Part shown: positions 6,972-45,660 of the stretch, piece by piece
Layout of the letters: every line of letters starts with the position of its first letter
Position numbering within the stretch: the stretch's first letter is position 1
Notes under the pieces: generated by a model
Seen by the model: only the letters and a program-made list of their open reading frames with translations
Databases searched by the model: none
What the model was told of the DNA's origin: nothing
Made by a program: the position numbers and the translations under genes
From: Candidatus Latescibacterota bacterium
GTDB taxonomy: Bacteria; Latescibacterota; UBA2968
Assembly: GCA_965242535.1 (NCBI GenBank)
Contig: OZ251458.1
Span: forward strand, 4,627,280-4,691,279
Direction of reading: 5' to 3'
Length of the DNA: 64,000 nt

Positions 6972-7129
6972 AGGCGGGAAGGCGGGGAGACGAGAGACGG
7001 GAGAGGGAAGTTTAGCCACGAGCGGGGTACAACTGGCAGTAGCCAGTTCAAAGGCACAAAAGGTATAAAAGGCACAAAAGGGACGAGCGGGGTATAACGG
7101 GTGACAGGCCGTTCAAGGGCGAGCGATGT

Positions 7130-25220: not shown

Positions 25221-25625
25221 CACTCTGTAAATTAAATAATTCGGAATTTCAATTTTTCAAAAGCGTGACGGACGTGATGCCGTACATCAATTAAGCCATC
25301 GCCAAACGTGCCATCGCAAAAGCCCACCAACGAAAGCCATCGGGCACAGCGCGCAAGTCCGTTTGGCAACCAACATCCATTTTGCAACCCACCTCGCAGG
25401 CTGACTCATGTCGTGCGATTACAAAAGCGATTTGCGCTGTGCAAGCCCCTCGGCGTTTGAGAGCGGCATTTTTTGCCTACTTTTTTTGCTGTAGAAAAAA
25501 AGTAGGTCGCCGAAGGCATCGAAGGCAACCAACGATGCTTTTAGGACCAAACATTTTAGAAAAGCGAGCAACTCAGGTGCTGATTTGTGCGTATCCAAAT
25601 TGAGAATAACTTAATTTACAGAGTA
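25221..25625 (+). mobile_element. MITE copy 1 (405 bp, non-coding)
   Basis: TIRs CACTCTGTAAATTAA and TTAATTTACAGAGTA. Flanked by the direct repeat TTCAG (25216-25220 and 25626-25630). Internal nested hairpins include CCTACTTTTTTT-gctgtag-AAAAAAAGTAGG. Confidence 0.75.
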
Positions 25626-29844: not shown

Positions 29845-31329
29845 ATGCCGAAACGACCCAATATCTTGTTTGTGTTGACGGATCAACAACGCTGGGACAC
29901 CATCCACACAGCGGGCAACCCGCACATTCGCACGCCTGTCATGGACAGGCTCTGCCGCGAGGGCGTGAATTTCGCACGGGGATACACGCCGTCGCCGGTT
30001 TGCGTGTCCGCACGCGCCTCGATCATCACCGGGCAGTACCCGCACAACAACGGGTGTTTTGACAATGGATTTCCGCAACCGACAGACCGCCCCTCGCCGA
30101 TGGACTGCCTCGCGCGGGCGGGGTATTATTGTCACGGCGTCGGCAAGATGCACTTTACCGGGGATCGCAGGGGGTTGCGGGGGTTTCACACGCGCGACGT
30201 GCAGGAGGAACTCTGCGGGTCGGTCGACGCAGACGATTATCTCCAATTCGTCCACGCACAGGGCTTTGGGCACGTCCACGACGTGATGGGGGCGCGCGGG
30301 GAAATGTATTACATCCCGCAGATTTCCCAACTGCCCGCCCGCCTTCATCCCACCGCTTGGGTGGCGGACCGCAGCATCGACTTTTTGCAAAACCGCGATT
30401 CGTCCAAGCCGTTTTTCCTGTGGTCGAGTTTCATCCATCCGCACCCGCCGTTTTCCCCGCCGACGCCGTGGAACAAACTCTATCGCGGCGCGCAGATGCC
30501 CTTGCCCAAACGCCCGGATGACATGGAAGACCTGTGGACGCATCTCAACCGGCATCAGAACCGCTACAAGTACCGCGACGCGGGGTTGGATGATCGCCTG
30601 CTGCAAGTGATGCGCGGGTATTACTGGGCGTGCGTGTCGTTTATCGACTACAGCGTGGGGCGGATTCTCGACGCGCTCGAACGACAAGGGGAGTTGGATC
30701 ACACCCTGATCGTCTGGTCGTCCGACCACGGCGAGTTGCTCGGGGATTACAACTGTTTTGGCAAGCGCAGTTTTCTCGACGTTGCGGCGCGCGTGCCCAT
30801 GTTGGCGCGTTATCCGGCCCGATTCCCGCGTGGCACTGTGGAAGAAACGCCGTGCGGTTTGATGGATTTGATGCCGACGTTTTTGGCCGCTGCGGGCGTT
30901 TCTCCCCGCGATGTGGATTTGGACGGTGTGGATCTGGCCGAGTTGGTCGGCAACCGAAACGAGCGAACGATTTACGGGCAGATTCAGCGCGGGCAACGCG
31001 GCGTGTACATGGCGTACAACGGCGCGTTGAAATACATTTATTCGGCGGGCGATCAAAAGGAATATTTGCTCGATCACCGCGTAGATGCCGAGGAAACGCG
31101 CAACGGTGCTTACAATGTGCTCTATGGTTCCGATGTGAAAACCATGCGCGAAAACCTGATCGGCTTCTTTCGGGATGAGGGCTATGCCGAACCCCTAGAC
31201 GGCGACAACTGGAAAACCTTCGACCGCATTGCCGAACCCAAAAGCGCGGACGCAAATCTGCTGATCCAAGACGCGGGTTGGGCCATCCCCCACTCCCGTA
31301 TTCCGGGGTATTCGACAACGGAAAATTAA
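29845..31329 (+). CDS. Sulfatase family protein
   Basis: PNILFVLTDQQRWD, SPVCVSARASIITGQYP (formylglycine-site region), WSSDHGELLGD. GAGGAG RBS. Confidence 0.9.
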   Translation: MPKRPNILFVLTDQQRWDTIHTAGNPHIRTPVMDRLCREGVNFARGYTPSPVCVSARASIITGQYPHNNGCFDNGFPQPTDRPSPMDCLARAGYYCHGVGKMHFTGDRRGLRGFHTRDVQEELCGSVDADDYLQFVHAQGFGHVHDVMGARGEMYYIPQISQLPARLHPTAWVADRSIDFLQNRDSSKPFFLWSSFIHPHPPFSPPTPWNKLYRGAQMPLPKRPDDMEDLWTHLNRHQNRYKYRDAGLDDRLLQVMRGYYWACVSFIDYSVGRILDALERQGELDHTLIVWSSDHGELLGDYNCFGKRSFLDVAARVPMLARYPARFPRGTVEETPCGLMDLMPTFLAAAGVSPRDVDLDGVDLAELVGNRNERTIYGQIQRGQRGVYMAYNGALKYIYSAGDQKEYLLDHRVDAEETRNGAYNVLYGSDVKTMRENLIGFFRDEGYAEPLDGDNWKTFDRIAEPKSADANLLIQDAGWAIPHSRIPGYSTTEN

Positions 31330-31330
31330 G

Positions 31331-31734
31331 TACTCTGTAAATTAAATAATTATGAATTTCATTTTTTGAGAGCGTGCCAGCCGTGATGCCATACATCAAA
31401 TAAGCCATCGTCCAACATGCCATCCAAAAGCCCATCAACGAAAGCCATCGGGCACAGCGCGCAAGTCCGTCTCGCAACCAACATCCATTTTGCAACGCAC
31501 TTCGCAGGCCAACGCATGTCGTGTTACTACAAAAGCGCTTTGCGCTGTGCCTAGCCCCTCGGCGCATGAGAGCGGCATTTTTTGCCTACTTTTTTTTGCT
31601 GTAGAAAAAAAGTAGGTCGCCGAAGGCATCAAAGGCAACAAACAATGCTTTAGGGCCAAACGCTTTAGAAAAGCGAGCCACGTCGGTGCGGATGGGTGTG
31701 GATCAACATTTCGTATCATTTAATTTACGGAGTA
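31331..31734 (+). mobile_element. MITE copy 2 (404 bp)
   Basis: Collinear with copy 1 along its whole length. TIRs TACTCTGTAAATTAAAT and ATTTAATTTACGGAGTA. Flanks are TTAAG and TTTAG. The left flank contains the sulfatase stop codon. Confidence 0.75.
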
Positions 31735-31928
31735 TTTAGTTGGGACAAATGGAGACGTGCTGGGCACGCGCGGGCAGTCATTGCCCCCTACCAAATATTT
31801 CGCGCTATCGGCAGCGATTTGAACAAAATATTCATCCCAGAATCAAAAAGAGCCTATTTTTTAGGCTCTTTTTTTGGCATAATCATTGCATTATAGATTT
31901 CAAAAACGCCGATTCCAAACGAGCGATT

Positions 31929-33026
31929 ATGTGCGATTATGCCCTGCCATGGTTGGTGCTCTACGCGGTGCCGGGCCTGGGGCCTGCTGCGTACTGCGCC
32001 CTTCTCGAGCATTTTGAGACGCCCGAGAATATTCTTTCGCAGTCCCCTCGATCCCTGTGCGATGTCCCCGGCATTGGCCCGAGCACGGCGCAGTCTATTT
32101 GTTGCAACCGGGATTGGGCATGGGCGCGCGATCAAGTTGCGCGGGCACAGGGCATCGGCATTGAAATTTGCACGCTTTCCGACCCGCTCTATCCCCCCAT
32201 TCTAACCCAAATCTACGCGCCGCCACCCCTGCTTTTCGTCAAAGGCGATATCCGCTTGTGTCAGTCGCCAACCGTCAGCATCGTGGGGTCGCGTTCCTAC
32301 ACGGCGTATGGGCGAGAAACCGCGCATCGTTTGGGGGGCGATCTCGCCAGATCCGGGGTCACGGTGGTCAGCGGCATGGCCGTTGGCATCGACGCCCATG
32401 CACACCGAGGCGCGCTCGAGCACGGCGCGACCACAGCGGTGCTCGGCAGCAGTTTGGATTGCCCCTATCCCCCTGAAAACCGCGGCCTGTTTGACCAGAT
32501 TTGTGAACGCGGCGTCGCGTTATCCGAATTTCCACTGAGCACGCCCCCAGAGCCGCACAATTTTCCCCGGCGCAACCGCATCATCAGCGGCCTGAGCCTG
32601 GGCACGGTCGTCGTTGAGGCCGGCACGCGGAGCGGCGCGCTGATCACCGCCCAATTTGCCCTCGACCAAAGCCGCGATGTGTTTGCCGTTCCCGGGCCGA
32701 TTTATTCGGGCAAAAGCCGGGGCACAAATGGCTTGCTCCGCCAAGGCGCCATTCTCGTGCAGACGGCGCAAGACATTTTGAGCGAAATCAATCATCAAAT
32801 AACGGCCTCCGATCCCCCCGCCGAGTCGGGCACATCCCGCGAGGCATGTCCAAACCTATCCGATCGGGAACAGCGCGTATGGGAAATCCTCGCAGACGCC
32901 CCGGTACACATCGACGCGCTCGCACGGGCGGCGGGATTCTCCTCTGGCGAAACTCTCGACATTCTCTTGGGGCTTGAAATACAAGGACATGTCGAGCAAC
33001 TGCCGGGCATGCTTTTTAAGCGATAA
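31929..33026 (+). CDS. dprA: DNA processing protein DprA
   Basis: VVSGMAVGIDAHAHRGAL, NFPRRNRIISGLSLGTVVVEAGTRSGALITA, C-terminal winged-helix part. The in-frame ATG at 31929 is used. Confidence 0.9.
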   Translation: MCDYALPWLVLYAVPGLGPAAYCALLEHFETPENILSQSPRSLCDVPGIGPSTAQSICCNRDWAWARDQVARAQGIGIEICTLSDPLYPPILTQIYAPPPLLFVKGDIRLCQSPTVSIVGSRSYTAYGRETAHRLGGDLARSGVTVVSGMAVGIDAHAHRGALEHGATTAVLGSSLDCPYPPENRGLFDQICERGVALSEFPLSTPPEPHNFPRRNRIISGLSLGTVVVEAGTRSGALITAQFALDQSRDVFAVPGPIYSGKSRGTNGLLRQGAILVQTAQDILSEINHQITASDPPAESGTSREACPNLSDREQRVWEILADAPVHIDALARAAGFSSGETLDILLGLEIQGHVEQLPGMLFKR

Positions 33027-33031
33027 AAAAA

Positions 33032-33054
33032 GAGAGCTGTTAAGCTCTCTTTTC
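33032..33054 (+). terminator. Terminator after dprA
   Basis: AGAGAGCT-gtta-AGCTCTCT followed by TTTT and preceded by an A-run (could act bidirectionally). Confidence 0.55.
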
Positions 33055-33129
33055 GTAATGTGCAACCTTTTATCCCATCCAATGTATGGCAACTCAAATG
33101 GATCGCTGTCTCCGCCTGAATTTTTGTGA

Positions 33130-33155
33130 GGACAGGCACGGGGGCCTGTCCCTAC
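33130..33155 (-). repeat. Solo REP-like hairpin
   Basis: GGACAGGCACGGGGGCCTGTCCCTAC followed by GGTTGATGGGG. The same tail occurs at 49103-49140. Confidence 0.85.
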
Positions 33156-33309
33156 GGTTGATGGGGCTAGGCGGGCCCCAAACTCCTATCTCGTTTTGTA
33201 AGCATTGTCAAGCGTTAATGAGGCTAGGCGGGCTGATGGCTGACGTCGGCCAGGACGCAATGCGATAATCAGCGCGACTCTACGGTTGCTAGGCACTGAT
33301 GGGTCGCCC

Positions 33310-35103
33310 TCACACCCCCCGCGACATGGACAGCCCTTCTCGCTCGCGCCACAAAAACAACACATGGCGCGATTTCCGCAAATAGCGTTCGTAATGCTTG
33401 TTAAAATCCCGCCGCCTGCCATTGGGCGTTTTGCCATTGGGCCGCGCATTGCATTTGCCCCGCGCCTGCGTGATGCTCCGGCTGCCATTTTGCACGGCAA
33501 TCGTCATCACGCGGTGCGTTTCATGTTCCGGCGTCGTCACCTGCATCGACCAGATCGACGTCCGCCCATTTTTGCAGTTGTTCGCGTACGAGCCGACGCA
33601 GTGGTGCATCTTGCGGCCTTCGTCGGACAATTCCTTGGCCGTCACCAACTCGGTGATGGTCCAGCGATCCCTCGCGTTTCCATACCCATCCGTTTCCGTC
33701 CAATCTAGCGCGTTGAATCCCGAAGGTGCCCACACCTTTGCGGGCAGGCGATTCTGCCGCGCCAACTGCCGGTGCCACATCTCGACCTGCCGCAACAACT
33801 TGACCGCGCTGCGTCCCTTAATCGAAAAATTCGGTTGCTCCGGGGGCCGTTGCACGACTTCGCCGTCGATCGTTTCTTCCCGCGGCGCGTACTTCTGGTT
33901 GTGAATATAATCCACAATCGGCCCGACCTCGTCCGGATCGAGCATGGGATTGTTGACAAAAAAATGCACCACCTTGCACCAGAAAGACTCGCGATCAAAA
34001 GACGCCCCCAAGCGCGTGGCGTTCACCGCACGCACCAGGGGTTCACCCCCGCCGAGGCCGAGAATTTGCCCGCGCCGAAACGCCTCGTAAATCGCGTAAT
34101 CCGCAGGCGACTGCAAAAACAAATGGGCCATCTTCTTCGTCAGGGTCAACGGAATGTCGGCCTTGCGGATATTGCCCCCCGTGCCCACATGGACAAACCA
34201 GCTCTGTTGCTGTCGCGCCTCGGCTCCCTCGCTGAGAAACCACGCGATGTCCATAAACCCGGGCACATCGTATTTCGCCAACAGATGTCGCGCCAAGGCC
34301 GCAAATTGCTTGCGTGCGTTGTGCGACTCGGGCCGCCAATCGGTCGGATCGCGCAACCAATGCGCGTGCCAGCGCGCCAGCGCGCCCAAGGCTTCGATAT
34401 GCGTATTGCCATCTTGCGGCCCCAAGCGCGCCATCGCGGGTTTGACGTCGAAGAACCGCCCGTGTTTCTCCACATGCAACAATAAGTGCAACAGCGCGCG
34501 CCGCCCCTTGCGATCCTCGCCCATTTGATCAAACGCACGCTGAATTTTCTGCAAATGCGGGCGATTCAACGCCCCTTCCGACAGCGCGCCATCGCAGATC
34601 GCCCGAATCGCCTCTCGGGGCCGCCGCGTGTGATTTTTCATCTTCGCCAACACGGCGTCGCTCTTCAGGCGTTCGGCCAAATCGCGTTCTTTCCCGCGTT
34701 GCGCCGCGCTCTTATGCGTGCCCGCGCTCAACCCATGCGCGCTGCACCACGCCGCGTAATCCGCGACCGATTTCAACCCCAACTCTCGGATGTGTTGCGC
34801 GAGTTCCCGATCCGCCAATTCCGCATCTTTTGCCCGCTCGGCAATTATCCGCTCGCGCCGCCGCGCTTGCCACCCCTTGTTCAACGCCCGGTTCAACCCG
34901 TGATCGCGGCACCACGCCCGATATTGCGCCACCCCCGTCAACCCGAGCGATTGGATATGCGCGGTCAAATCCGCATTCGCCTTGCCCGCGGCTCCGCGAT
35001 GCCGCCTCTTTTTGCGCTTTGTCGCCATACGGCCTCCTGCACCTATCGCATCTGGTTCACACCCGTCGAGATGCACGTTTACCTTTTGCGAATATTCAGC
35101 CAA
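33310..35103 (-). CDS. PcfJ-like protein
   Basis: C-terminal block KMHHCVGSYANNCKNGRTSIWSMQV resembles the PcfJ family core. The N-terminus carries two ~45-aa repeats (HIQSLGLTGVAQYRAWCRDHGL and HIRELGLKSVADYAAWCSAHGL). Confidence 0.6.
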   Translation of the reverse strand: MAEYSQKVNVHLDGCEPDAIGAGGRMATKRKKRRHRGAAGKANADLTAHIQSLGLTGVAQYRAWCRDHGLNRALNKGWQARRRERIIAERAKDAELADRELAQHIRELGLKSVADYAAWCSAHGLSAGTHKSAAQRGKERDLAERLKSDAVLAKMKNHTRRPREAIRAICDGALSEGALNRPHLQKIQRAFDQMGEDRKGRRALLHLLLHVEKHGRFFDVKPAMARLGPQDGNTHIEALGALARWHAHWLRDPTDWRPESHNARKQFAALARHLLAKYDVPGFMDIAWFLSEGAEARQQQSWFVHVGTGGNIRKADIPLTLTKKMAHLFLQSPADYAIYEAFRRGQILGLGGGEPLVRAVNATRLGASFDRESFWCKVVHFFVNNPMLDPDEVGPIVDYIHNQKYAPREETIDGEVVQRPPEQPNFSIKGRSAVKLLRQVEMWHRQLARQNRLPAKVWAPSGFNALDWTETDGYGNARDRWTITELVTAKELSDEGRKMHHCVGSYANNCKNGRTSIWSMQVTTPEHETHRVMTIAVQNGSRSITQARGKCNARPNGKTPNGRRRDFNKHYERYLRKSRHVLFLWREREGLSMSRGV

Positions 35104-35139
35104 AGAAACCTCGATCAGCGTTGGCTACGCCTGTGCCTA

Positions 35140-35400
35140 CGGCGTGCGGCGTCAACCGCTCAAATTACTCGCGTTTTCATACTTTTTTTTAGAGAAGACG
35201 CGAATAAGCGTAGAAAGAAAAGTAGGCGAGCGGGGTACAACTGCCCGAGCAGTTCAAACGCTTTTGTAACAACACGACACGCGCCAGCCTGCGAGGTGGG
35301 TTGCATAATGGCTGTGGATTGCGAAATGGACTTGCGCGCTGTGCGTGATGGCTTGCGGCGATGAACTTTTGGGTTCGCATGTTTGGCGAGGGCTTCTCTG
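35140..35400 (-). mobile_element. Diverged MITE relic (reverse orientation, no recognisable TIRs)
   Basis: The reverse complement aligns with the MITE core: AAGCCATCacGCACAGCGCGCAAGTCC..TGCAACCCACCTCGCAGGC..ACAAAAGCG plus a degenerate T/A-run hairpin. Confidence 0.5.
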
Positions 35401-35493
35401 AAGGACGGTGGAACGGCAAAGCGATCCCGATAATGAATGAGTTGGTACAAATGGTTTCAGGGGTTCATATTGACCTGTGCGATGAGGTGCTCG

Positions 35494-36402
35494 TCATTTG
35501 TTGGCGCGGAAAAATTTTGCCGCATCCAACAGAATGTCCGCAGATTTTTCGGAAAACCGAAAGTGCGCGGCGTCAGATGGTCGCCCATCGGCCCAAACGA
35601 TGTCTATTTTAATCCCCCGTCCCATCATCGCCAACTTAGCTACCGAATCGCACAATCTCGCACTGACGCCATATCGTACAGCCCTTGCAAAAAGTTCGAA
35701 CGCATCGCCCGTTCTGGTCTCGGCAATGGCCTCGTTGGCGTATTCAAGGGCGCGGGCCAAGGTGTCTGTGACGCGGCGAGAAGGCGCGTACAAATCGCCT
35801 CCAAAATTTTCTCGCACTCCCATGCCTACTGGCGATTTCTGATTTTTTGAGGATATCGGCGCGCCATTCCCCATAAGCACGGGCGCGTGCAAGGTGAGCG
35901 CGTAGCCCTCGCCATAGCCCGGCACCAAGCGCACCTCGTCGAGATATTGCGCGACGACCGCACTTGGTTTGCCGCGATAGACCGCCTGCGGGTTCTCGGT
36001 AGCACGCGCCGCCGCAACCAATAGGCTGTAAGCCTCGCGGACCAACCTCGCGCTTTGCGGCAATGAAAGCGATTTCCCTACCGCGCCATTGACCGCCCGC
36101 ATCCGTATCACATCGGACCCCGCGGCGGACAGGTCGTAGAACACGTCGAGTTGGGAGCGATTCTCGACCTCGGCGAGAACCTTGACCGCCTCGGCCATGC
36201 TCTCGACATGGTCGCCAAGGGTGTCCCGTGATGGAGCTAAAATCTCCCAATTTTGTCCGCCGCGTTCTTTGGTGTAGATCGTGGCGGGCCGGTTCCCCCA
36301 AGGGCCTTCGTCGTTCCACCCATGCGAAATCAGGTAGAAACGGAGGTTGCCAACTGACAGCGACGACAACGCATTCCGGTCGCGTATCTGAACTTTCATC
36401 AT
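35494..36402 (-). CDS. Hypothetical protein (302 aa, no recognised domain)
   Basis: Long ORF whose start overlaps the stop of the upstream DUF4365-like gene (ATGA at 36399-36402). Codon composition is backbone-like. Confidence 0.6.
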   Translation of the reverse strand: MMKVQIRDRNALSSLSVGNLRFYLISHGWNDEGPWGNRPATIYTKERGGQNWEILAPSRDTLGDHVESMAEAVKVLAEVENRSQLDVFYDLSAAGSDVIRMRAVNGAVGKSLSLPQSARLVREAYSLLVAAARATENPQAVYRGKPSAVVAQYLDEVRLVPGYGEGYALTLHAPVLMGNGAPISSKNQKSPVGMGVRENFGGDLYAPSRRVTDTLARALEYANEAIAETRTGDAFELFARAVRYGVSARLCDSVAKLAMMGRGIKIDIVWADGRPSDAAHFRFSEKSADILLDAAKFFRANK

Positions 36403-36878
36403 AGCCTCCCATCCTCGGCTTTGGTCATTAAGTCGTGGAGGTGATCTCGACTAAAAATGTTGGTCGCAGGTAGATCGATGCTAATGCTTGAAGTATTTGT
36501 TACAGCAGGCCGGCCTTCAAGAGAAATCCAATAGCCGCAACGGCGCAGACAAAGCTCATCTTCAGTTTGGCTTACCCATTGATCAGGATCCCGAGGCATC
36601 AAAACAACGATCAAAATGTGCGGAACTTTTGTGGGGATTCTCAGGTCATTGTAATTCTTGATTGGCAGGCGAAAGGGTAAGTTGTCGCCCCGTACAATAT
36701 CTTGCGACGTTGCCTTGGCTTGAAATTTTATCAGTGAACGCGGGCTAGAACCCGACATCAGGATCCCGTCCACGCTACCAATATCTATTTTTAGCGTGTT
36801 CATCTGATAACCGGCACTTGCTGCCACTGCTCCAATATATGCCAAAGAGAACAGCTCCTTATGTAAGTTCAGCGTCAT
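36399..36878 (-). CDS. DUF4365-like (restriction-endonuclease-fold) protein
   Basis: ELFSLAYIGAVAASAGY..DIGSVDGIL..IKFQAKAT resembles the DUF4365 N-terminal pattern (D.GID...vQvK). GAGAGG RBS. AT-richer by eye. Confidence 0.5.
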   Translation of the reverse strand: MTLNLHKELFSLAYIGAVAASAGYQMNTLKIDIGSVDGILMSGSSPRSLIKFQAKATSQDIVRGDNLPFRLPIKNYNDLRIPTKVPHILIVVLMPRDPDQWVSQTEDELCLRRCGYWISLEGRPAVTNTSSISIDLPATNIFSRDHLHDLMTKAEDGRL

Positions 36879-37027
36879 TATGCGTACCTCTCGGTGGTCA
36901 CGGCTTACTCATCGCGCCCATCAATAAACCCTCCCGGGCATCTCCAGCGCGTTCGACCTCGGCTTCGGAGAAGGTGGTCATGGTGTTCCTCATGCTTCTG
37001 GAAGTGTGGAGATGCTATATGTTAAAA

Positions 37028-38944
37028 CTAATTTACCAACCCCATCTCTCGGAGGAATCGCGAAGGGTTTTTTTTCCAACCAAATACTTTGCGTGAGTAC
37101 GTCAATGTCAAACTTTCCTGAGTGCGTGTGATAGCGACAAAACAATTTCGCCTTTCCTCCTGCATTTCACGGCTATCGTCGCCCTTTTTGACCGCTATCC
37201 AACTCGGTAATTGATCCTCCACGAGGCCAACGAGATAAACATGACCAAATTCCAGGCCCTTCGAGGCATGAATCGTAAAACAAGGTACAGCGTCCTTCGG
37301 AGGATTTGGAGTTTTGGAACGGAGATCGAGCCCTTGTAACAGCGCGTTCAGCGTTACTTGCTCCCTGCCATATTCACCAACGACTTCGCCTATGAGGTCG
37401 TACCAGGTGTCCTTCTCTTCCCTATATTCCCCCATTTTGTCGTCAGATGTAGGCCGGGTTTCCGGCAATTCTTCAAACCATGTAAAGGCATCTTTGATAA
37501 AGGTCCAAAAATCCAATTTATCGGCGAGTTTCGCCACCGCCCCAGACAGAAGCCGTTCTGTTTGAGGCTCTACATCTTTCCGTTGCAACGCGGCTCGTTG
37601 CCAGGCACGGAGGTAGTCGCCTTCCTCGGCCGCCGCATCAGATATTACGTCTCCAACGATCAGATTGATGCCTTCAAGGTCCAAAAACGATTTGCAGATT
37701 CGGCGCAGTTGCTCGCGGTCCTGTCGGGCATTTGCCAACCGCAACATCGCGTGCAACCACGCCATCGGACTGCTGACAAACTCGTCCTTTCGCATTGCGA
37801 GATAGCCCGGCACGTTGCGCGTTTCAAGGGCTTCAACGATCCGTTCTAAAAGCCGGCGCGTGCGTGCGAGCACCACACACTTGCAACGCGACTCTTTGGA
37901 TCGAAGCGCGATATCGCGGGCAACCCAATCGGCTTCCTCATCAAAGCAAGCAAAGTCTTTCACCCGAATCGCGTTGCTTTTGCCGCTCTGCTCGTGAGGG
38001 GTTAAAGCTGTCTTGTTCGGATCGTGGCATAGATTGTGTTCAATGAGCGCGTTGGCAACATCGATCACTGCTGGCGGGCAACGATAATTTTCCGGTAGCT
38101 GTATAACAGACATACCAAAATCGCGCCGGAGCGATTTGAGCCGTTCCGGATCAGCCCCATTCCATTGGTAGATGATCTGGTCATCATCAGCAACGACGAA
38201 CAGATCCTTTGTCGCGGGGTTCACAATGCTATGCAAAATGTGATATTGTGCCGAGTTCGTGTCCTGAAATTCGTCGACACAAATGTATGGGTAGATGCGA
38301 CTCGTCAACTTTCTTATGGCGGGCTTCATTTGGAGCAGTCTAAAAGTTTCAGCGATGATTCCACCAAAATCCAGTTGATCGTTCTCGATCATCGAGTGTC
38401 GATAATTTCTGTAAATCGTCCCTATTACTTCGGCACCTTTCACATTGTATTTTTGCAAAAACGCAATAGCATCCTCCGCCGACACACTGTCGTCTAGGAG
38501 TCGTGCGACAAGAGGCAACAATTGTTCGCCTCTGTAAGTAACTTCCCCATGCTCCTTGCGCGTTCTTTCAATGGCCTCGTCAAGAACGGCTTCGCGATCT
38601 ATCACTTGGGGCAAAATCGCAAAGTCGGGGCGGAGGCCGATGTGGTGACCATGCTGACGCAGAAGGCCAACGCCGAACGAGTGAAATGTCGTTAGCAACG
38701 CACGCTCGCCTGCATTTGGAACGAGAGATTCAATGCGTTTCCGCATTTCTGTGGCGGCTTTGTTCGTAAAGGTGAGACCGAGGATTCTGAAGTGTTTCCC
38801 CGCGGTCTCTTCAATGATCCGAGCAATGCGATAGGTAAGGACCCGGGTTTTTCCCGATCCTGGCCCGGCCAGAACGAGAAGCGGCCCCTCGTTCCAATGA
38901 ACTGCCTGAGACTGATTCGCATTGAGCGACGACAGATCGACCAT
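37028..38944 (-). CDS. gajB: Gabija GajB (UvrD/Rep superfamily 1 helicase)
   Basis: AGPGSGKTRVL (Walker A), VDEFQDTN, TIHASKGLEFGHVYLVGL, FVAITRTQESL. Its ATG at 38944 overlaps the gajA stop (TGATG). Confidence 0.8.
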   Translation of the reverse strand: MVDLSSLNANQSQAVHWNEGPLLVLAGPGSGKTRVLTYRIARIIEETAGKHFRILGLTFTNKAATEMRKRIESLVPNAGERALLTTFHSFGVGLLRQHGHHIGLRPDFAILPQVIDREAVLDEAIERTRKEHGEVTYRGEQLLPLVARLLDDSVSAEDAIAFLQKYNVKGAEVIGTIYRNYRHSMIENDQLDFGGIIAETFRLLQMKPAIRKLTSRIYPYICVDEFQDTNSAQYHILHSIVNPATKDLFVVADDDQIIYQWNGADPERLKSLRRDFGMSVIQLPENYRCPPAVIDVANALIEHNLCHDPNKTALTPHEQSGKSNAIRVKDFACFDEEADWVARDIALRSKESRCKCVVLARTRRLLERIVEALETRNVPGYLAMRKDEFVSSPMAWLHAMLRLANARQDREQLRRICKSFLDLEGINLIVGDVISDAAAEEGDYLRAWQRAALQRKDVEPQTERLLSGAVAKLADKLDFWTFIKDAFTWFEELPETRPTSDDKMGEYREEKDTWYDLIGEVVGEYGREQVTLNALLQGLDLRSKTPNPPKDAVPCFTIHASKGLEFGHVYLVGLVEDQLPSWIAVKKGDDSREMQEERRNCFVAITRTQESLTLTYSRKVFGWKKNPSRFLREMGLVN

Positions 38945-40644
38945 CACCGCGCCTCCTTTGCAAGGTCCAATGCACATTCAATAATTTCAAGAAGTTGAGT
39001 TGGGACGTTCTCTTTTCCCCTGCTTTCCATTTGCTCTATGACCGCCATTGCCTTTCTCGGCTTCGAATCTCTAGTAATCTGCTTCCAATATTTGGGCGTT
39101 CCTCTCTCGGCGGTAACAGTATGCTTTTTTTGCGCGGACATATTTGCTTCATAAACGGAACCGTAGCCTTCCATACAGAGAAACACCTCCATATCACCAT
39201 GTGCCAATTTGTGTAGATGGCGACTTTCTGGTCGGCTACCAATTTGCTTTTGGGCACTGCTGATATATCCGTCTCCAGCGGAATCGCCATCTGCGACAAC
39301 GAGCCATTCGATGCCCAACTGGTCGGCGACCTTAATGAATTTCTCAACCCCAATCTGAGCAAATTCGATGGGAAAGACGCCTTCAGAGACGAGGTCGCAC
39401 TCACAAATCCGGGCACATTCCTCAAAAATTAGACAATCTGTCTCGCCTTCCACTAGCAACCAGCAACGTGCAAAAAGGAGATTGCCCCGCGTGGAACGGA
39501 CGTGATAGTTGAGTTTCTGGATCTCGTCGGGTGTAAGCGTGTTGTCTTCGATCTGATGAACGGTTATTTGACCGTCCTTTCGGCGGAGTCTCCGCAGCGA
39601 CTTGAGGGGAATACTCGCCAAGAGATCGCCGGAGTGCGTGGCGATGATTTTTTGTCCTTTTAGTCCCTGAAGCAGAGTAGCAACAGATCGGATCGCCGAA
39701 GGATGGAGATGGGCTTCCGGTTCTTCAAGTGCCAATATCGGCGTTGTGTACTCCGCATAACTGTCTGCTAGTTTGCTCTGGAGAAATGCGTCAAACAAAC
39801 AGATTACCGCCAAGCTTTGAGTGCCTTCGCCATGTCGTCCAATCGGCAAACGCGCACCGGTTATTGACGTGAGCATGACTTGAGTGCGCGACAAGATGTC
39901 AAAGACTTTGCCAGGGACCGCTTCAATACCTACTGGATCGTCTCCGTGGAGAGGAAGCATCTTGCCGGTGTTGTCGAGTTGCTCTTTGATCGCGTCAAAC
40001 GATTCATGAGCATCCAAAATTTTTTGATTCAGTATTGCCAATTCCCCTTCGAGTTCTCGTCTCAATTCGGGAGCGATATTCAGGGAGCGAACGAATGGTC
40101 CCCAAAACTGGGAACCAGGTCGAAATTCTTGGGCCGAATCGCGCAGTGCTGCCAGATAGAAAACGGGCGCGAGTTGTTGCAACGAGACGATGTGTCGCGG
40201 CTCCTTAGCATTTATGAGTTCGTCGCCAGCGAGGTTAAGAAAATCCCAAGTTGTGACAAAATCACCCTTCGCCTGGTCGTATTCGCTCTGCACGCGGAGT
40301 ATCGCGCTTTGCCGATCATCGTCGTCCATTTGAACGACATCAGATAGGCGTCCCAATACTTCGTCTGTCCACTCGCCTTCAACCTGCTCGGCGAAACGCA
40401 ACGTGATTTCTATGGCGTCACTGTCTGCCGGCTGGCTGTCCTGTCGTGGCAAATGATAATCGTATTCTGAAAATATGCTCCCTTTTCGAGTGAGCGAACG
40501 GCTGAGGCAAAATTGCAGTGCTTCCAGTATTGTCGATTTCCCGGTGTTATTTTCTCCTATCAGAACGGTGGTGTTGTCGAGTTTGAGACGCAACCGCTGG
40601 ATTCCCCTAAAATTCGCAATGTCGATTTGTTCTAAGAACATCAT
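38944..40644 (-). CDS. gajA: Gabija GajA (OLD-family ABC-type ATPase + TOPRIM nuclease)
   Basis: FLEQIDIANFRGI..VLIGENNTGKSTILEAL, ILALEEPEAHLHP, C-terminal TOPRIM WLLVEGETDCLIF and VVADGD. The ATG at 40644 follows GGAG. Confidence 0.8.
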   Translation of the reverse strand: MMFLEQIDIANFRGIQRLRLKLDNTTVLIGENNTGKSTILEALQFCLSRSLTRKGSIFSEYDYHLPRQDSQPADSDAIEITLRFAEQVEGEWTDEVLGRLSDVVQMDDDDRQSAILRVQSEYDQAKGDFVTTWDFLNLAGDELINAKEPRHIVSLQQLAPVFYLAALRDSAQEFRPGSQFWGPFVRSLNIAPELRRELEGELAILNQKILDAHESFDAIKEQLDNTGKMLPLHGDDPVGIEAVPGKVFDILSRTQVMLTSITGARLPIGRHGEGTQSLAVICLFDAFLQSKLADSYAEYTTPILALEEPEAHLHPSAIRSVATLLQGLKGQKIIATHSGDLLASIPLKSLRRLRRKDGQITVHQIEDNTLTPDEIQKLNYHVRSTRGNLLFARCWLLVEGETDCLIFEECARICECDLVSEGVFPIEFAQIGVEKFIKVADQLGIEWLVVADGDSAGDGYISSAQKQIGSRPESRHLHKLAHGDMEVFLCMEGYGSVYEANMSAQKKHTVTAERGTPKYWKQITRDSKPRKAMAVIEQMESRGKENVPTQLLEIIECALDLAKEAR

Positions 40645-40745
40645 GTCCGGTCTCCTATATTCTAACCCTCCCTGGCACCAGCGCGTGATCGCAGGGCGGC
40701 GGCGGATATGATTTAACATTAACCGATATGTCCCGTGAAAGCAAG

Positions 40746-41750
40746 TCAGTGGATGGTTTTTCTCGTATAGTGTTTATCAAATTCCTGTAAAATGTTGGGA
40801 TGGTAGAGAGTTTTCTTTTGACTATTGGGGTTATTGGGATTAAGAAGCCGAGTTTTCGCAAATCTCGGATCATCGTGGAGAGGTTTGCGGATAGCATGGT
40901 AGTCTCTATTTACTTTGAAATTTTGGTAAAGCTTTCTGCACTTCTCTGTGAGAGTGTTGTAATCCCAAGGATATTTTCCCCAAATTTCTTCTTCTGTAAA
41001 GCGAACCGCTGGTGCTGAAGGGTCTGTCGTAATTTGTGTTAGCAAGGCATCCTTGGCGTTTGACTTGGTGAATTGAATGTCGATACTCACAGTCACAGAA
41101 TAGAGAGATTCAGGATCCGATTCAGCGTTGTCGATTTTCTCTAAAAATGATAGGAAATTTTTTTCTACTGCATTGAGCAAAACCCCATCCACATTAGAAG
41201 GCAAATTCATAAAAGTCAACGGCATCAGGTGCAGATCAAATTCCGAAAGTTCCCGTCCAAACCATTCGCGAGTAGCGGTGGCAAAGTTTTTGACGCAGGC
41301 TGCACCGACCTCATACAAGTATTTCTGAAATGCTGAAGATGAAAAATAATGCGTGGCGCAGTTGCGAAACTCCCGCAGAATATCAAGATTGTGTCCTACA
41401 GACGGGTCAAGGTTTTTATTTTTGACCATCTGTTTGGCCAGATAATCTATACCGTGAGTAAAAGGGACGTTGGATCGAGTTCTTTTGACAAAGCGTTTTT
41501 TGCTTTTTGTCCCATCAGCTTTTTGACGCTTTTCATAAACATATAGACTACTTGCCTTGTTCTCGTGAATAGCAAGCCATCTGGCTTTTAAGAGGAGTTC
41601 CCATCCGTTGATCGCGAGAATTGCGAATGTCTCGTCTCGATAAGAAAACCCTGGCTTATTGTAAATTTCGATGGCGGATACCATAGCCGATATCGCCCGA
41701 TCCAATAACTCGTTTGACCGTGATTTCATACGTTTCTCCTGTCCTTTCAA
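40746..41750 (-). CDS. Hypothetical protein, DUF3644-like N-terminus (tentative)
   Basis: LLDRAISAMVSAIEIYNKPGFSYRDETFAILAINGWELLLKA resembles the A.E.YNKP...R.E.F....AWE.LLKA pattern I associate with DUF3644. Clearly AT-rich gene. Same strand, 101 bp upstream of gajA. Confidence 0.5.
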   Translation of the reverse strand: MKGQEKRMKSRSNELLDRAISAMVSAIEIYNKPGFSYRDETFAILAINGWELLLKARWLAIHENKASSLYVYEKRQKADGTKSKKRFVKRTRSNVPFTHGIDYLAKQMVKNKNLDPSVGHNLDILREFRNCATHYFSSSAFQKYLYEVGAACVKNFATATREWFGRELSEFDLHLMPLTFMNLPSNVDGVLLNAVEKNFLSFLEKIDNAESDPESLYSVTVSIDIQFTKSNAKDALLTQITTDPSAPAVRFTEEEIWGKYPWDYNTLTEKCRKLYQNFKVNRDYHAIRKPLHDDPRFAKTRLLNPNNPNSQKKTLYHPNILQEFDKHYTRKTIH

Positions 41751-41769
41751 TCCTGTCTCGTTATTTCAC

Positions 41770-42460
41770 TTATGTTCGGACTTCGCCACTGATGAGCTTC
41801 GGCAACAGCGTATCGCGCAGGGCGGCGAAGCCCGTTGCAGCGGCGAACACCGTCATGGGCAGATGGGTAGAATGCAAATCCAAGACCGCCTCTCCGCAGG
41901 CGTCGGTCTCCGCGCTTTTCCAAGTGTTGTTGGGAAAGAGCACCAAGAGATCGACATTGCCCAGCGGCTCGCCGGCGCATCGCACAGTGATGACCGCACG
42001 GGCGGGACTCTGCTCCTGCAATGCCGCGGGAATGATGAGGCAAACTTCCGACTCGTCAATCAATCGGTATTCGGGCGGCCTGCCGCAGAGTTCCCGGGTT
42101 TCGCGCAGGATGATCGAAACGCCATCTCCGCGCCGCTCCATGAAATACCTTCTTTCCTCAGAGCCTCGCACGCCCCCCACCGGCATCCTCCCTAGCACAG
42201 AGGTCAATATTGGGTTGCGGGTGGCCTGCCGCGTCGCCATGCTCTCGACCGTCAAGTTGTTTGGCAACGCGCCGGGCGTCGGTCACGCCGCAAAGCAACA
42301 CGCCGCCATGTCCGTTGGCAAAAGCCGCCAGTTCATTCGCGAGGCTGTCGCGCTTTGGGCTGTGCGGATGGCCGCCGCGAAACGCAATTTGTTTGAACTC
42401 CCACCGGCTGTCCTCACCCAAGCGCAACTGGCGGACGATATCCTCAGTGCCGTAATTCAT
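41770..42460 (-). pseudogene. Degraded AlbA_2 / HATPase_c_4-type putative regulator (frameshift plus internal deletion)
   Basis: ORF 42158-42460 encodes the AlbA_2-like N-terminus (EDSRWEFKQ..LANELAAFANGHGGVLLCGVTD). Overlapping ORF 41770-42267, in another frame, carries only the end of the ATPase-like domain (TRNPILTSVLGR..RRGDGVSIILRE..RPPEYRL). Total length is about half that of intact homologues. Confidence 0.55.
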
Positions 42461-42579
42461 CGCTCATCTCCAAGTTCGTTATGCTTCAACTTGCCGGTCA
42501 CTTTTGCCGAAAAATGACCCACAACGAATTTTGTGTGCCATAAATGACCCACAAAAGTATGTGCCGATGGGTATCAGCA

Positions 42580-43692
42580 TCAAAACGCCTCGTGTCCCTC
42601 TACGAGATTGACGAGTTCAGAGAACGCCAGAATATTCGATCTGCGCCCGCCTCCACGGGCGATGACCTTTAGAACATCGCCTCTGCACAAGGCGTCCAGA
42701 ACCCGGCGCGCCGTCTTTGCCGGAATGCCCGCTTCGGCAACGAAGAACGAGCTCGGAAAGATCGGACGCTCAAAGATCCAGTCCAACGCTTGGATGCTGT
42801 ATCGAGAGCGGGTCAGGTCCGACACGCGGAGCTTCATCCCGTCATACAAGTCGAGAATGCCCTTGGCCTTTGCCAAGTCGTCTTCGGCTTGCGCCCGAAT
42901 CGCTTCGAGGAAGAACCGGCACCAGCCGGTCCAGTCGTCATCGCGCGAGACCGCGAGCAGCCCTTCGTAATAGGCGTCGCGGTGGGCCTCGAAATAGGCA
43001 CTGATGTAAAACATGGGGCGCCCGATGATTTTGTGTTGCCACAAGAACAAGGGCACGAACAGGCGCCCCAAACGACCATTGCCGTCTAAGAACGGGTGCA
43101 GGGCCTCGAACTCGGCGTGCAGGATGGCGAGTTGCACCAGGCGATCGAGCGCGTCTCGGTGGATATAGCGCTCCCACGCGCTCATGGCATCTGGGAGTTT
43201 ATCGGCACTGATGGGTACGAATTTGGCCTCTTCAATGGTGCATCCGGGGGCCCCTATCCAGTTGGGAACGCGCCGGTATTCGCCGGGGGCTTTGCCCTGG
43301 CCGCGCACGTCGGAAAGCAACACGCGATGGGCGTCTCGGATGACCCGCTGGGAAAGTGGCAATTCCCGTAGCATTTCTTCTGCCCTTCGCATGGCGGCGC
43401 GGTAGTTGAGCACTTCGCGGATGTCGCCGCGGCGTTCGGGCGAGGCCGTCTCTCGTCCCGCCTCAAATTCCAATACCTCGCCCAGGGTGGCTTGCGTGCC
43501 TTCAATGCGCGAAGACAGCACCGCTTCTCGAGTCGTGAGCGGCGAGAGCAAAACGCCTGGGTTCGGTATGGCGGAAAGCATCCCGTCGTAACGCGCCACG
43601 GCCCCGGCCGCCGGGCCGATCAGTGGAATCAACGCCTCCCAGTCGAGGTTCTCGGGGGGGAACTGCCCCAGGTGGTAATGTATCGTTGCCAT
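42580..43692 (-). CDS. Fic family protein (AMPylase-type) with N-terminal inhibitory helix motif
   Basis: HPFLDGNGRLGR (HxFx[D/E]GNGRxxR), SSRIEG ([S/T]xxxE[G/N]), C-terminal winged-helix-like tail. The ATG at 43692 gives MATIHYHLGQF. The upstream part of the 522-aa ORF is a gene remnant. Confidence 0.85.
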   Translation of the reverse strand: MATIHYHLGQFPPENLDWEALIPLIGPAAGAVARYDGMLSAIPNPGVLLSPLTTREAVLSSRIEGTQATLGEVLEFEAGRETASPERRGDIREVLNYRAAMRRAEEMLRELPLSQRVIRDAHRVLLSDVRGQGKAPGEYRRVPNWIGAPGCTIEEAKFVPISADKLPDAMSAWERYIHRDALDRLVQLAILHAEFEALHPFLDGNGRLGRLFVPLFLWQHKIIGRPMFYISAYFEAHRDAYYEGLLAVSRDDDWTGWCRFFLEAIRAQAEDDLAKAKGILDLYDGMKLRVSDLTRSRYSIQALDWIFERPIFPSSFFVAEAGIPAKTARRVLDALCRGDVLKVIARGGGRRSNILAFSELVNLVEGHEAF

Positions 43693-43699
43693 CAATCCG

Positions 43700-44044
43700 C
43701 TCCAAATCCCAATGTGTTCAGATTTTTTTGGATGAGGCCATCCAGGCGCGTGCTTTCCGCTTGCTGATCGCGCCATTGCGCGGCGCGGCGATTCGCCTTG
43801 GTCGCGAACGGCTCGCCTCGGTCGGCACTCAAAAAATGTTTTGTGCGCGGTACTCGTCCGGGTCTTCGGGATCGGCCAAGGCATCGCGCTCGAGTTGCAC
43901 GCGCGCCTCCTCGAAAGCGTCGGAGATGTACTTGAAAAAGATGAGTCCGAGGATGACGTGCTTGTACTCGGCGGCGTCCATGCTGCCCCGCAGCGCGTCT
44001 GCCATTTGCCACAGTTCGGGTTTGCCAACCACATGATCTGACAC
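43700..44044 (-). pseudogene. Remnant of a type I R-M methylase gene (hsdM)
   Basis: The 71-aa [39 protein letters not shown] is the HsdM N-terminal domain and then stops. A second frame ends ..LDGLIQKNLNTLGFG, like an HsdM C-terminus. The whole catalytic core is missing. Confidence 0.65.
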
Positions 44045-44262
44045 GGGAAAACCTCCAAATGGTGTTGCAAATCGGGTGCTTTCAAAGTTCGGGTTTCATC
44101 ATAATCGGGATTTTCCATTTCTTCAAGGACTTTTTGATTTCCGCCCAACTCGCCGTGCGCGTTTAGGCGTTGCGGCGCCTATGGGTTTGGCTTATCGTTT
44201 GGCTGACGCCTAGCGCGATGGGCAGATGTTTTGGACGCGATACAACTCGTGGAGGTGACAGG

Positions 44263-45660
44263 ATGAAAATACGCATTAAAAACCTCGGAATTTTAAGGCA
44301 GGCGGAATTTTCGCTCGGGGATTTGACCATCATCTGCGGCGAGAATAACACGGGCAAAACGTATATGGCTTACGCGCTGTATGATTTCTTGCAGTCTTGG
44401 CGCAAACTTATTCGCGTTCCGGTAAGCGATGCCCAGATCCAACATTTGATTAAAGATGGCGTCCTCAATATCGGATTGGCACAATACGTCAAAAAAGCCG
44501 ATCAGATGCTCGCAGAGGCGTGTGGGAAGTACAAGGATAAACTGGACGATGTTTTTGCAGCGCCCGAAGGCACGTTTGATAACAGTGAATTTCAAATTCA
44601 GGTAAAAATTCCCGATGGCATCGCAAAGAGAGAAATAACCGGAAACACGCCGTTCATTACTTTCATAAAGAGGGAAGGGAGTGAAGAACTGGTGGTTACT
44701 TTTGAAGAAAAAAAAGAAGAAAAAAATGGGAATTTCTTTCTTCAGGGCATTCAAAAAGCCGCATATATAGAAACGTTCATGGGGTTGATTATCAGCAGTG
44801 CTATTTTTCGCGATTCCTTTCCCAGGCCCTTTATTGCTTCAGCCGAGCGCACTGGCGCGGCAATTTTTCGCAAGGAATTGAATTTTGCGCGCAACCGCCT
44901 GCTTGACGAAATAGCCCAAGCAGACAAAAAAATCGATCCGAGGCCGTTGCTATCAAAAGAGTACCAAAATTACCCTTCGCCAATAGAAGCCAATGTGGAA
45001 TTTACGCGGCAACTCGAAGAGGTGGCAAAAAGACAAAGCTTTATCACCAAAGAACACCCGGAAGTGTTGGAAGACTTTGCCGATATTATGGGTGGGAGTT
45101 ACAGCCTGCCCCAAAATGACCAACTTTACTATCAACCCAAAGGGACGCGGGTTAGGTTGACGATGGTCGAGAGTTCCAGTGCGGTGCGTTCATTGCTGGA
45201 CCTGGGGTTTTATCTGCGCCATGTCGCTCAAAAGGGGGACCTGTTGATGGTAGATGAGCCGGAGTTAAACCTTCATCCGGCAAACCAACGCCGCATTGCA
45301 AAGCTGTTTGCGCGTCTGGTGAATGTGGGCGTTAAAGTCTTTATCACCACCCACAGCGATTACATCGTCAAAGAACTGAATACCCTCATCATGCTCAATG
45401 GCGACAAGCCACATCTAAAAAAAATTGCCGAAGAAAATGGCTATCGAAACGCCGAGTTGCTCAGAGTTGATCAAGTCAAAGTATATACGGCTCGAGACGC
45501 ATTGATGCCCTTAGAAGATGGGCAAAAGAGACGCAGGAGAGGCCACACACTCGTGCCGGCTGACATCGACCCCGAACTCGGCATTGCGGCCCCTAGCTTT
45601 GACGAGACGATTAATGACATGAACCGGATTCAGGAAGACATTATTTGGGGAGCGGAGTAA
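44263..45660 (+). CDS. ABC/SMC-type AAA ATPase (AAA_15/AAA_21-like), unclassified
   Basis: IKNLGILRQAEFSLGDLTIICGENNTGKTY (Walker A), LLMVDEPELNLHP (Walker B), ITTHSD (H-loop). ATG at 44263 after GGAGG. AT-richer by eye. Confidence 0.8.
   Translation: MKIRIKNLGILRQAEFSLGDLTIICGENNTGKTYMAYALYDFLQSWRKLIRVPVSDAQIQHLIKDGVLNIGLAQYVKKADQMLAEACGKYKDKLDDVFAAPEGTFDNSEFQIQVKIPDGIAKREITGNTPFITFIKREGSEELVVTFEEKKEEKNGNFFLQGIQKAAYIETFMGLIISSAIFRDSFPRPFIASAERTGAAIFRKELNFARNRLLDEIAQADKKIDPRPLLSKEYQNYPSPIEANVEFTRQLEEVAKRQSFITKEHPEVLEDFADIMGGSYSLPQNDQLYYQPKGTRVRLTMVESSSAVRSLLDLGFYLRHVAQKGDLLMVDEPELNLHPANQRRIAKLFARLVNVGVKVFITTHSDYIVKELNTLIMLNGDKPHLKKIAEENGYRNAELLRVDQVKVYTARDALMPLEDGQKRRRRGHTLVPADIDPELGIAAPSFDETINDMNRIQEDIIWGAE

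Follow-up and report, generated by a model that had tools for sequence, protein, structure and literature searches.

Which system do the two genes lying directly downstream of a Gabija locus in Candidatus Latescibacterota belong to, and is that system still at work there? The question concerns a stretch of 64,000 nucleotides (nt) of contig OZ251458.1, which we call the window and from whose first letter all positions are counted. The list of open reading frames (ORFs) of the window places the pair on the minus strand, with a gene for a 159-residue protein at 36399-36878 followed by one for a 302-residue protein at 35494-36402. Our answer to the first part of the question is that the pair is, near certainly, a member of the candidate defence system PDC-M02, the shorter protein being M02A and the longer one M02B. 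As for the second part, we consider it reasonably probable that this is a nuclease-based PDC-M02 module which is at least partly functional still and which is independent of Gabija. New here are the reading of PDC-M02 as a putative free DREN nuclease with a probable OB-fold partner, the recognition of a coherent OB-less clade with relaxed constraint, and the reconstruction of the locus as what appears to be a decayed type I restriction-modification (R-M) operon with an independent Gabija. It is no new kind of system: the module falls in a candidate family that is already catalogued, with an effector domain characterised in SPARDA.

The assignment starts from the PADLOC profiles. The 159-residue protein matches PDC-M02A (PDLC04297) at E 6.5e-49, its residues 1-157 covering profile positions 1-162 of 165, and the 302-residue protein matches PDC-M02B (PDLC04298) at E 2e-66, over profile positions 1-289 of 380 only. 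The layout is that of the family as well, with A followed by B, adjacent on one strand and overlapping by 4 nt. To place the pair in context, we used 82 further M02B loci, made up of 80 loci from GTDB genomes found with an M02B profile (mostly metagenome-assembled genomes of Chloroflexota, plus Poribacteria, Latescibacteria and Proteobacteria) and the metagenome contigs L001 and L002. In 74 of these 82 loci M02A immediately precedes M02B in the same orientation, usually with an overlap of 4 or 7 nt, and the loci in which it does not are contig edges or visibly decayed copies. Such adjacency, together with the two E-values, puts the pairing far beyond chance. An earlier annotation of this DNA from its letters alone (the sequence-only reading) had proposed a candidate defence module whose partners would be found together elsewhere, and in both respects it is borne out; its description of the pair as unclassified is superseded, since both proteins match the catalogued PADLOC candidate PDC-M02 (CAS_00021).

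PDC-M02 was predicted from type I R-M operons by Payne, Hughes, Fineran and Jackson, who inferred the defence function of PDC systems by "guilt-by-embedding" in BREX, DISARM and type I R-M loci (Payne et al., bioRxiv 10.1101/2024.01.29.577857). In their curation table it is cassette CAS_00021, with 894 given in the first column and the entry 'Assign as candidate', and it stands outside the systems that they validated (bioRxiv 10.1101/2024.01.29.577857); nor is it among the eight candidates tested in a cold-seep study (PMC12881386). The window shares with the described system the matches to both models, the adjacency, the overlap and close relatives in type I R-M operons, the defining context. 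It differs in that M02B stops at model position 289 of 380, without the C-terminal OB domain, and in that the host R-M operon has decayed.

Taking the two proteins in turn, M02A is a putative free-standing nuclease of the PD-(D/E)xK type, with D37, Q53 and K55 as predicted catalytic residues. It matches Pfam DUF4365 (PF14280) at E 6.8e-16, with 59 bits against a cut-off of 24.3, in line with the DUF4365 nuclease fold that had been proposed for it. Six positions (D32, S35, D37, G38, Q53 and K55) are invariant in an alignment of 40 M02A sequences, and none of these residues is missing from the window protein. In its AlphaFold2 model (predicted local distance difference test score, pLDDT, 83; predicted template modelling score, pTM, 0.83), D37 falls within the strand formed by residues 35-42 (beta2), and Q53 and K55 within that of residues 49-57 (beta3). 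Foldseek searches of the PDB returned SPARDA DREN-APAZ chains as all of the best 12 matches (E 1.8e-5 to 3e-4), with query-normalised template modelling (TM) scores of 0.54-0.61, and EcoRV came next in the list. Pfam and the model agree that M02A is a bare nuclease domain over all of its 159 residues, with no APAZ.

The active sites of characterised relatives help to read this motif. NbaSPARDA has D41 (beta2) with Q60 and K62 (beta3) as its catalytic residues, and a D41A/Q60A/K62A triple mutant is dead (PMC12205087), while in TmuRE Q62 and K64 are candidate residues of the active site, and Q62A/K64A was made as an inactive control (PMC10810196). Because of these two active sites, QxK rather than ExK is to be seen as the native motif of DUF4365/DREN proteins. 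The sequence-only reading had noted that M02A appears to lack an acidic residue and had therefore suggested that it may be a sensor or DNA binder rather than an active nuclease; with D37...Q53-A-K55 kept, and with D...QxK being the family's native signature, the inactive-sensor reading is not supported.

M02B is where the window departs from the family. Among the 156 homologues of our first M02B search, the 8 closest (76-99% identity) are 300-323 residues long, apart from P0007, a 269-residue fragment from a contig of 934 bp, and all others (at most 58% identity) have 372-391 residues. The same two groups separate in the alignment (A1), where the 8 closest homologues stop at the point at which the window protein does and the others run about 75-90 residues further. 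A wider profile search gave 4029 M02B cluster representatives at E<=1e-3, and nearly all of the full-length ones have 365-400 residues. The window protein, whose alignment ends at residue 302, is thus not a full-length M02B of 372-391 residues with its C-terminal OB-like domain, and the absence of this domain of about 85 residues had been overlooked in the earlier annotation.

What the long form carries at this end was modelled on the homologue P0015 (AlphaFold2; pLDDT 81, pTM 0.72), in which residues 290-371 make up a beta-beta-beta-alpha-beta-beta unit. The PDB matches that Foldseek listed for this model were almost only OB folds, namely anticodon-binding domains of AspRS/AsnRS, RPA, Stn1, Teb1 and HIN, with about 85-150 aligned columns and probabilities mostly of 0.8-1.0, and BFVD adds SSB, DnaE_OBF, tRNA_anti-like and ligase OB domains. 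These models point to an OB fold as the probable C-terminus of long-form M02B. OB folds are typical binders of single-stranded nucleic acids.

The rest of the protein is less familiar. Pfam and NCBIfam scans of the window M02B and of 79 homologue entries from two alignments found no family, housekeeping families included, and the first 290 or so residues of M02B found no known match in family scans, PDB sequence profiles or Foldseek. In particular, two M02B profiles had no meaningful match among PDB sequences, and the body gave no signal as a relative of DREN (probability 0.1). Over its full length M02B does resemble one structure, that of an uncharacterised protein of Leptospira phage LE1 (BFVD Q6NE06; E 6.9e-20, TM 0.6). 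Additionally, a 101-residue Nodularia phage protein (A0A482MK90) resembles one M02B domain, with a target-normalised TM score of 0.76. Among 37 diverse representatives, P0308 (478 residues) and P0378 (458 residues) hold a partial DUF4365 domain and a full M02B in one frame; these need not be true fusions and may come from frameshift or read-through calls, and we left them out as evidence of interaction.

The short proteins form a coherent clade. They end directly after a conserved AAKFFR helix, past which their tails are brief, variable and in places frame-shifted, and they share a clade-specific insert of about 17 residues (about residues 183-199) in a predicted disordered loop (residues 167-187 in the AlphaFold2 model, pLDDT below 50). 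The window protein nevertheless keeps all 31 invariant columns of a 42-sequence family alignment. When eight OB domains were searched against the window by tblastn, the whole of it yielded no trace of the missing domain, which rules out a frameshifted C-terminal domain there and therefore indicates a clean deletion rather than a split pseudogene. Other candidates for independent OB-less variants did not hold: P0035 and L068 are frameshifted copies, split into 294+81 and 292+120 residues, respectively, and P0038 comes from an assembly of 2.6x coverage. The window's clade is the only clean OB-less lineage seen in this analysis.

The two genes are joined closely at their junction, which reads GGGAGGctATGATGAAA. 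ATGA (36402-36399) is common to the end of the M02A gene and the start of the 302-residue frame. A second ATG of that frame, at 36399, has a better, canonical Shine-Dalgarno spacing of 5 nt, and the N-terminus MKVQIRDR that starts from it is common to all M02B homologues; the M02B product of the window is therefore probably one of 301 residues, with an overlap of 1 nt with M02A. Whichever ATG is used, M02A and M02B are translationally coupled, as the sequence-only reading had concluded from the ATGA overlap, and similar overlaps recur in the relatives. That reading had also noted a compositional break near the junction. The step is real, with a GC content of 0.471 in the M02A gene and 0.579 in the M02B gene, but it does not mark a boundary: every close relative, those in intact R-M operons included, has it (0.47-0.49 against 0.56-0.58), so that it is a property of the module and not the edge of a Gabija island or of an insertion. 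Recombination at the M02A/M02B junction is ruled out as its source by the same sharing. In the region around the pair, a promoter and terminator scan of 35000-37300 gave 1 promoter-like and 5 terminator-like sites, all within or just past M02B, in numbers not clearly above those of shuffled sequences and with none reported in the spacer between gajB and M02A; an Rfam scan of 30000-45000 found no RNA family.

Whether the shortened module is still maintained can be judged from the ratio of nonsynonymous to synonymous substitution rates (dN/dS), estimated by Nei-Gojobori comparisons with a Fisher test against 1. Within the OB-less clade the ratio is 0.40-0.56 for M02A and 0.38-0.72 for M02B. For the deeper pairs it lies significantly below 1 (Fisher p 3e-7 to 0.007), the M02A comparison of L002 with L070 being excepted, as the two are nearly identical and have too few substitutions to inform. 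The neighbouring genes of the same contig pairs give 0.20-0.24 (HsdR), 0.22-0.33 (SLFN-ATPase) and 0.22-0.26 (Fic), and as these genes share their contig pairs with the module, the raised ratio is not due to sequencing error. Long-form loci have medians of 0.16 for M02A at comparable synonymous divergence (dS), and of 0.14 both for the M02B body and for its OB domain. Constraint thus persists on both genes in the OB-less clade, although they are clearly relaxed or diversifying, by about threefold relative to their full-length relatives. No frameshift or stop is found in six (M02B) to seven (M02A) independent OB-less copies, which differ by up to 22% (M02B) and up to 36% (M02A) of their amino acids. 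Furthermore, between L001 and L002 dS is 0.23 for M02A and 0.10 for M02B, and 0.03 for the adjacent hsdR (the module being 4-8 times hsdR), which suggests that the embedded M02 cassette is exchanged independently of the R-M backbone.

Across the 82 loci the R-M setting is frequent without being general. HsdR is found within 10 kb in 22 of them, and the order hsdM-hsdS-M02A-M02B-hsdR in about 20, with hsdR starting -4 to +75 nt from the M02B stop in most of the R-M-embedded loci; about three quarters have no hsdR within 10 kb. Thirteen plasmids also carry members of the family, as do two Mycobacterium abscessus prophages, in which M02B stands at the extreme left end (MW584173.1 / MW584189.1, 952-2001), and these copies are annotated only as 'hypothetical' or 'DUF4365'. 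One pair lies alone on a conjugative Gluconobacter plasmid (NZ_CP014690.1, 6989-8628), adjoining a RelE/ParE pair. In PHROGs the family corresponds to groups 27905 and 27927, whose function is unassigned. GajA-like matches are present in 2 of the 82 loci, both weak (E about 5e-6), and UvrD-like ones in 3; gajAB adjoins the pair only in the window and in its near-identical relative L084.

The close relatives of the window retain what appears to be the ancestral setting. The loci L085 and L086 are apparently intact, with the order hsdM-Fic-SLFN/HATPase-MNT-hsdS-690-residue unknown-orf66-M02A-short M02B-hsdR, and L001, L002 and L070 are similar; in all five, hsdR or an hsdR-like start follows 9-46 nt past the M02B stop. 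A protein of 640-690 residues lies between hsdS and M02 in these operons (L001 1790-3739, L002 4116-6044, L070 4116-7983, L085 7564-9636); it has no Pfam match, is duplicated in L070 and is absent from the window.

In the window, tblastn with the proteins of L085 and L001 and blastn breakpoints against L085 recovered remains of such an operon at 41776-44148, again on the minus strand. They comprise the last 18 codons of hsdS (41776-41829), two fragments of the SLFN_AlbA_2/HATPase_c_4 gene (41816-42460), an intact Fic gene that is 92.6% identical to that of L085 (42601-43692), and an hsdM from which codons ~94-451 are deleted (43698-44044). A 522-residue ORF at 42580-44148 joins the hsdM fragments (codons ~1-93 and 452-509) with the intact Fic. 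hsdR is absent from the window, so the pair is not flanked by hsdS and hsdR in an intact type I operon. From the hsdS stump towards M02A there follow, one after the other, the gene of a DUF3644 protein, a conserved element of about 75 nt, gajA, gajB and a relic of the start of hsdR. Homology to the R-M loci stops 13 nt past the M02B stop. To judge from these alignments, the pair appears to be the survivor of a decayed type I R-M operon, now an orphan, and a single ancestral deletion reaching the upstream region of hsdR probably removed the OB fold in its clade.

The spacer of 149 nt between gajB and M02A (36879-37027, minus strand) records part of this history, as traced by blastn and a junction alignment. 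It holds a relic of 64 nt (36947-37010, reading MTTFSEAEVERAG...), which corresponds to the 5' end of hsdR with its upstream spacer. The relic is 89% identical to L085 11420-11483, where hsdR starts at 11449, and also matches the equivalent places in L001, L002 and L070; the N-termini of the HsdR proteins read MTTFSEATVERAALEW. In the intact relatives this sequence lies downstream of M02B, and the window has it upstream of M02A, where it meets the final ~25 nt of the 75-nt element at the microhomology ACGCGCTGGAG (the L084 counterpart is at 6916-7089).

A complete copy of the 75-nt element is found by blastn between the DUF3644 gene and gajA (40674-40747, minus strand), 94.6% identical to L085 9680-9753 upstream of orf66-M02A. 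The element precedes M02A in the relatives. We make no promoter claim for it, as a manual count gives its best hexamers only 3 of 6 matches each to the sigma-70 consensus. In L083, which is 97-99% identical to the window, the DUF3644 gene is joined directly to the upstream region of M02A, with the element at the junction (~8190-8290) and without Gabija; an insertion sequence (IS) element inside its M02A leaves 134 residues. L084 has the same arrangement as the window, with the element on both sides of the Gabija cassette, the second copy lying upstream of M02A (7134-7220). Since L083 lacks Gabija and the element flanks it in L084, Gabija is to be seen as a cassette that was separately gained or lost, and these arrangements suggest that the gain or loss took place by recombination at the element.

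Several of the genes around the pair deserve mention on their own. Gabija itself (37028-40719, minus strand) consists of gajA at 38944-40719 and gajB at 37028-38977, which match their PADLOC models at E 4.7e-228 and 3e-265, respectively. The DUF3644 protein has 334 residues (40746-41750, minus strand; Pfam PF12358, E 8e-43) and is catalogued as PDC-S19 (PADLOC, E 1.9e-122); its gene lies in the most AT-rich stretch of the region, with a GC content of 0.40-0.43. The DUF3644 domain of the validated system HEC-08 has been described as HEPN (Payne et al., bioRxiv 10.1101/2024.01.29.577857), and the protein is probably a further, independent single-gene defence candidate. The place that hsdR holds in the relatives is occupied in the window by a PcfJ-like protein of 597 residues (33310-35103, minus strand), very strongly constrained with a dN/dS of 0.03 against L083, beside which lies a DprA/Smf-like gene assigned by sequence inspection (31740-33026, plus strand). 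Two inverted copies of an intergenic repeat of ~117 nt flank dprA and the PcfJ-like gene; the repeat occurs in the window at 25317-25432, 31424-31540 and 35256-35372 (copies 76-84% identical), and also in L002 (770-886 and 14714-14813), L070 and L083. It could form a long hairpin, but no pair shows a compensatory change and it has no Rfam match.

How a module of this kind would act can be sketched from SPARDA, where a DREN monomer has no activity and indiscriminate DNA cleavage sets in only once the sensor assembles tetramers (PMC12205087). Given this tetramer dependence, the simplest model would have M02B both restrain and license M02A. M02A, with its D37/Q53/K55 site, would be the presumed effector, a DREN-type nuclease, and M02B its obligate, coupled partner, composed in the normal form of 372-391 residues of the ~290-residue body and the OB fold. 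M02B would hold M02A in check until infection was signalled, most likely by a nucleic acid that the OB fold recognises, and would then release or assemble M02A; once fired, M02A would degrade DNA non-specifically, and abortive infection would follow. We regard this model of M02B-controlled activation, which is built by analogy, as possible but tentative. The OB-less variant would then have a different or reduced input, or would be kept mainly because M02B must neutralise M02A; put otherwise, it may sense differently, be a plain nuclease/antidote pair, or be decaying. Gabija and the DUF3644 gene would have been inserted beside the module as independent cassettes. A bolder proposal is that PDC-M02 represents Argonaute-free control of a SPARDA effector, with M02B as the sensor or scaffold that assembles a free DREN nuclease, and with the OB-less clade as a natural experiment in which the input was rerouted, for example to an R-M complex, or a nuclease/antidote pair was left; this we find rather doubtful.

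Comparison with known systems shows how far such analogies reach. The likeness to SPARDA (NbaSPARDA, PDB 9jt2/9jsz; XauSPARDA, 9qcc) consists in the DUF4365/DREN fold and the D...QxK signature. Unlike in SPARDA, there is no APAZ fusion to M02A and no Argonaute (MID-PIWI) gene, the neighbours GajB, M02B and the PcfJ-like protein being without PIWI or MID matches in Pfam, and M02B has no SPARDA or Argonaute match among the 50 PDB matches listed. Guide-dependent sensing is therefore excluded, and it is only the logic of effector activation that may be common to the two. PrrC, of EcoprrI, is an anticodon nuclease whose gene lies within a type I R-M operon. Many M02 family members share its position between hsdS and hsdR, but the proteins are unrelated, M02 has two genes instead of one, its predicted target is DNA and not tRNA, and most members are not embedded in R-M systems. 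With type II toxin-antitoxin systems, the module shares a small, overlapping two-gene operon, one predicted nuclease, and carriage on plasmids and prophages; it differs in that the M02 partner is second in the operon and has 300-390 residues, with a novel fold and (normally) an OB domain. The operon architecture is the compatible part of this comparison, and toxicity of M02A is hypothetical.

A number of points weigh against a defence nuclease that is still at work. We found no published experiment on PDC-M02 in the literature, and its defence function is putative, with genomic context as the basis. Physical contact between M02A and M02B is a prediction by analogy. The correspondence of D37/Q53/K55 to D41/Q60/K62 follows from strand position and motif, not from a residue alignment, and neither M02A alone nor the 40-sequence M02A profile had a meaningful HMMER match among PDB chains; for these PDB sequence searches and those with the two M02B profiles, the best matches were designed repeat or helix-bundle proteins at E ~0.05 or weaker. 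The OB-fold matches of M02B have weak E-values (about 1e-2), and since Foldseek does not give the matched residues, the placement of the probable OB fold at residues 288-375 derives from aligned length and secondary structure. Finally, a dN/dS raised about threefold, the loss of the putative sensor domain, the loss of most of the usual upstream element and the decay of the host operon are compatible with a module on its way out.

Taken to its end, this last point would make the pair a functionless relic that lost its sensor domain and is decaying slowly, with frames not yet broken. The deletion of the OB domain fits such a view, as do a dN/dS of ~3x that of the long-form relatives and 2x that of the neighbouring genes, the destruction of the host R-M operon, with an hsdR relic in place of most of the 75-nt upstream element, and the L083 copy, whose M02A an IS element has already cut to 134 residues. 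We still hold it to be unlikely, since the dN/dS of either gene falls significantly short of 1 (p down to 3e-7), the independent copies, six of M02B and seven of M02A, carry no frameshift or stop despite divergence of up to 22% and up to 36%, respectively, and all family-invariant residues are kept, the putative catalytic triad among them. That the window pair is intact amid decayed R-M genes, and that purifying selection still acts on the two genes in the OB-less clade, would also suit an addiction module of the toxin-antitoxin kind, with M02A as toxin and M02B as protein antitoxin. Such a module would act by post-segregational killing without phage sensing, and its truncated form could survive because the OB domain would be dispensable for neutralisation. 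The tight overlap in 74 of 82 loci and carriage on plasmids, as with the pair alone by RelE/ParE on the conjugative Gluconobacter plasmid, agree with this. M02B, however, at 375 residues with an OB fold, is far larger than typical type II antitoxins, Pfam and NCBIfam scans found no DNA-binding autoregulatory domain in it, and about a quarter of the loci lie in the hsdS-hsdR slot typical of defence cassettes; we therefore rate addiction as quite unlikely, and it is in any case not mutually exclusive with abortive infection.

That slot raises a further reading, in which the module would guard type I restriction as PrrC does, firing when a phage anti-restriction factor inactivates the R-M system, and in which the OB-less form could receive its input through HsdR. 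The arrangement hsdM-hsdS-M02A-M02B-hsdR in most of the ~20 embedded loci, with hsdR at -4 to +75 nt, is as such a guard would have it, and all intact OB-less loci have hsdR or an hsdR-like start 9-46 nt past the stop. There is also the precedent of PrrC itself, for which embedding in type I R-M is listed as the almost exclusive setting (Payne et al., bioRxiv 10.1101/2024.01.29.577857). Yet ~three quarters of the loci have no hsdR within 10 kb, the plasmid and prophage copies stand alone, contact with HsdR is hypothetical, and the window has no R-M system left to guard, all of which makes this reading improbable. The sequence-only reading, in turn, had offered the pair as a possible accessory to Gabija. 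It begins 149 nt past gajB in the same orientation, the spacer having no reported terminator-like site, and L084 shows the same arrangement. The comparative data already contradict this: GajA-like matches (E about 5e-6) occur in 2 and UvrD-like ones in 3 of the 82 other loci, L083, at 97-99% identity, has the pair without gajAB, and the two copies of the 75-nt element that bracket Gabija in L084 mark a separate insertion. We give an accessory role almost no credence, and retain as our preferred reading a PDC-M02 module that is at least partly functional and independent of Gabija.

The window itself thus holds a known candidate, independent of Gabija, which may be a weakened copy. The family to which it belongs is large, its ~4,000 sequence clusters being spread over chromosomes, plasmids and prophages and annotated just as "DUF4365" or "hypothetical". 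To our knowledge, the one role in which DREN has so far been characterised is that of the killer domain which Argonaute controls in SPARDA. Should PDC-M02 prove to be a genuine defence system, DREN would be a portable effector, wired here to a different sensor that combines a novel fold with an OB domain, and the OB-less clade offers a ready-made domain-deletion comparison.

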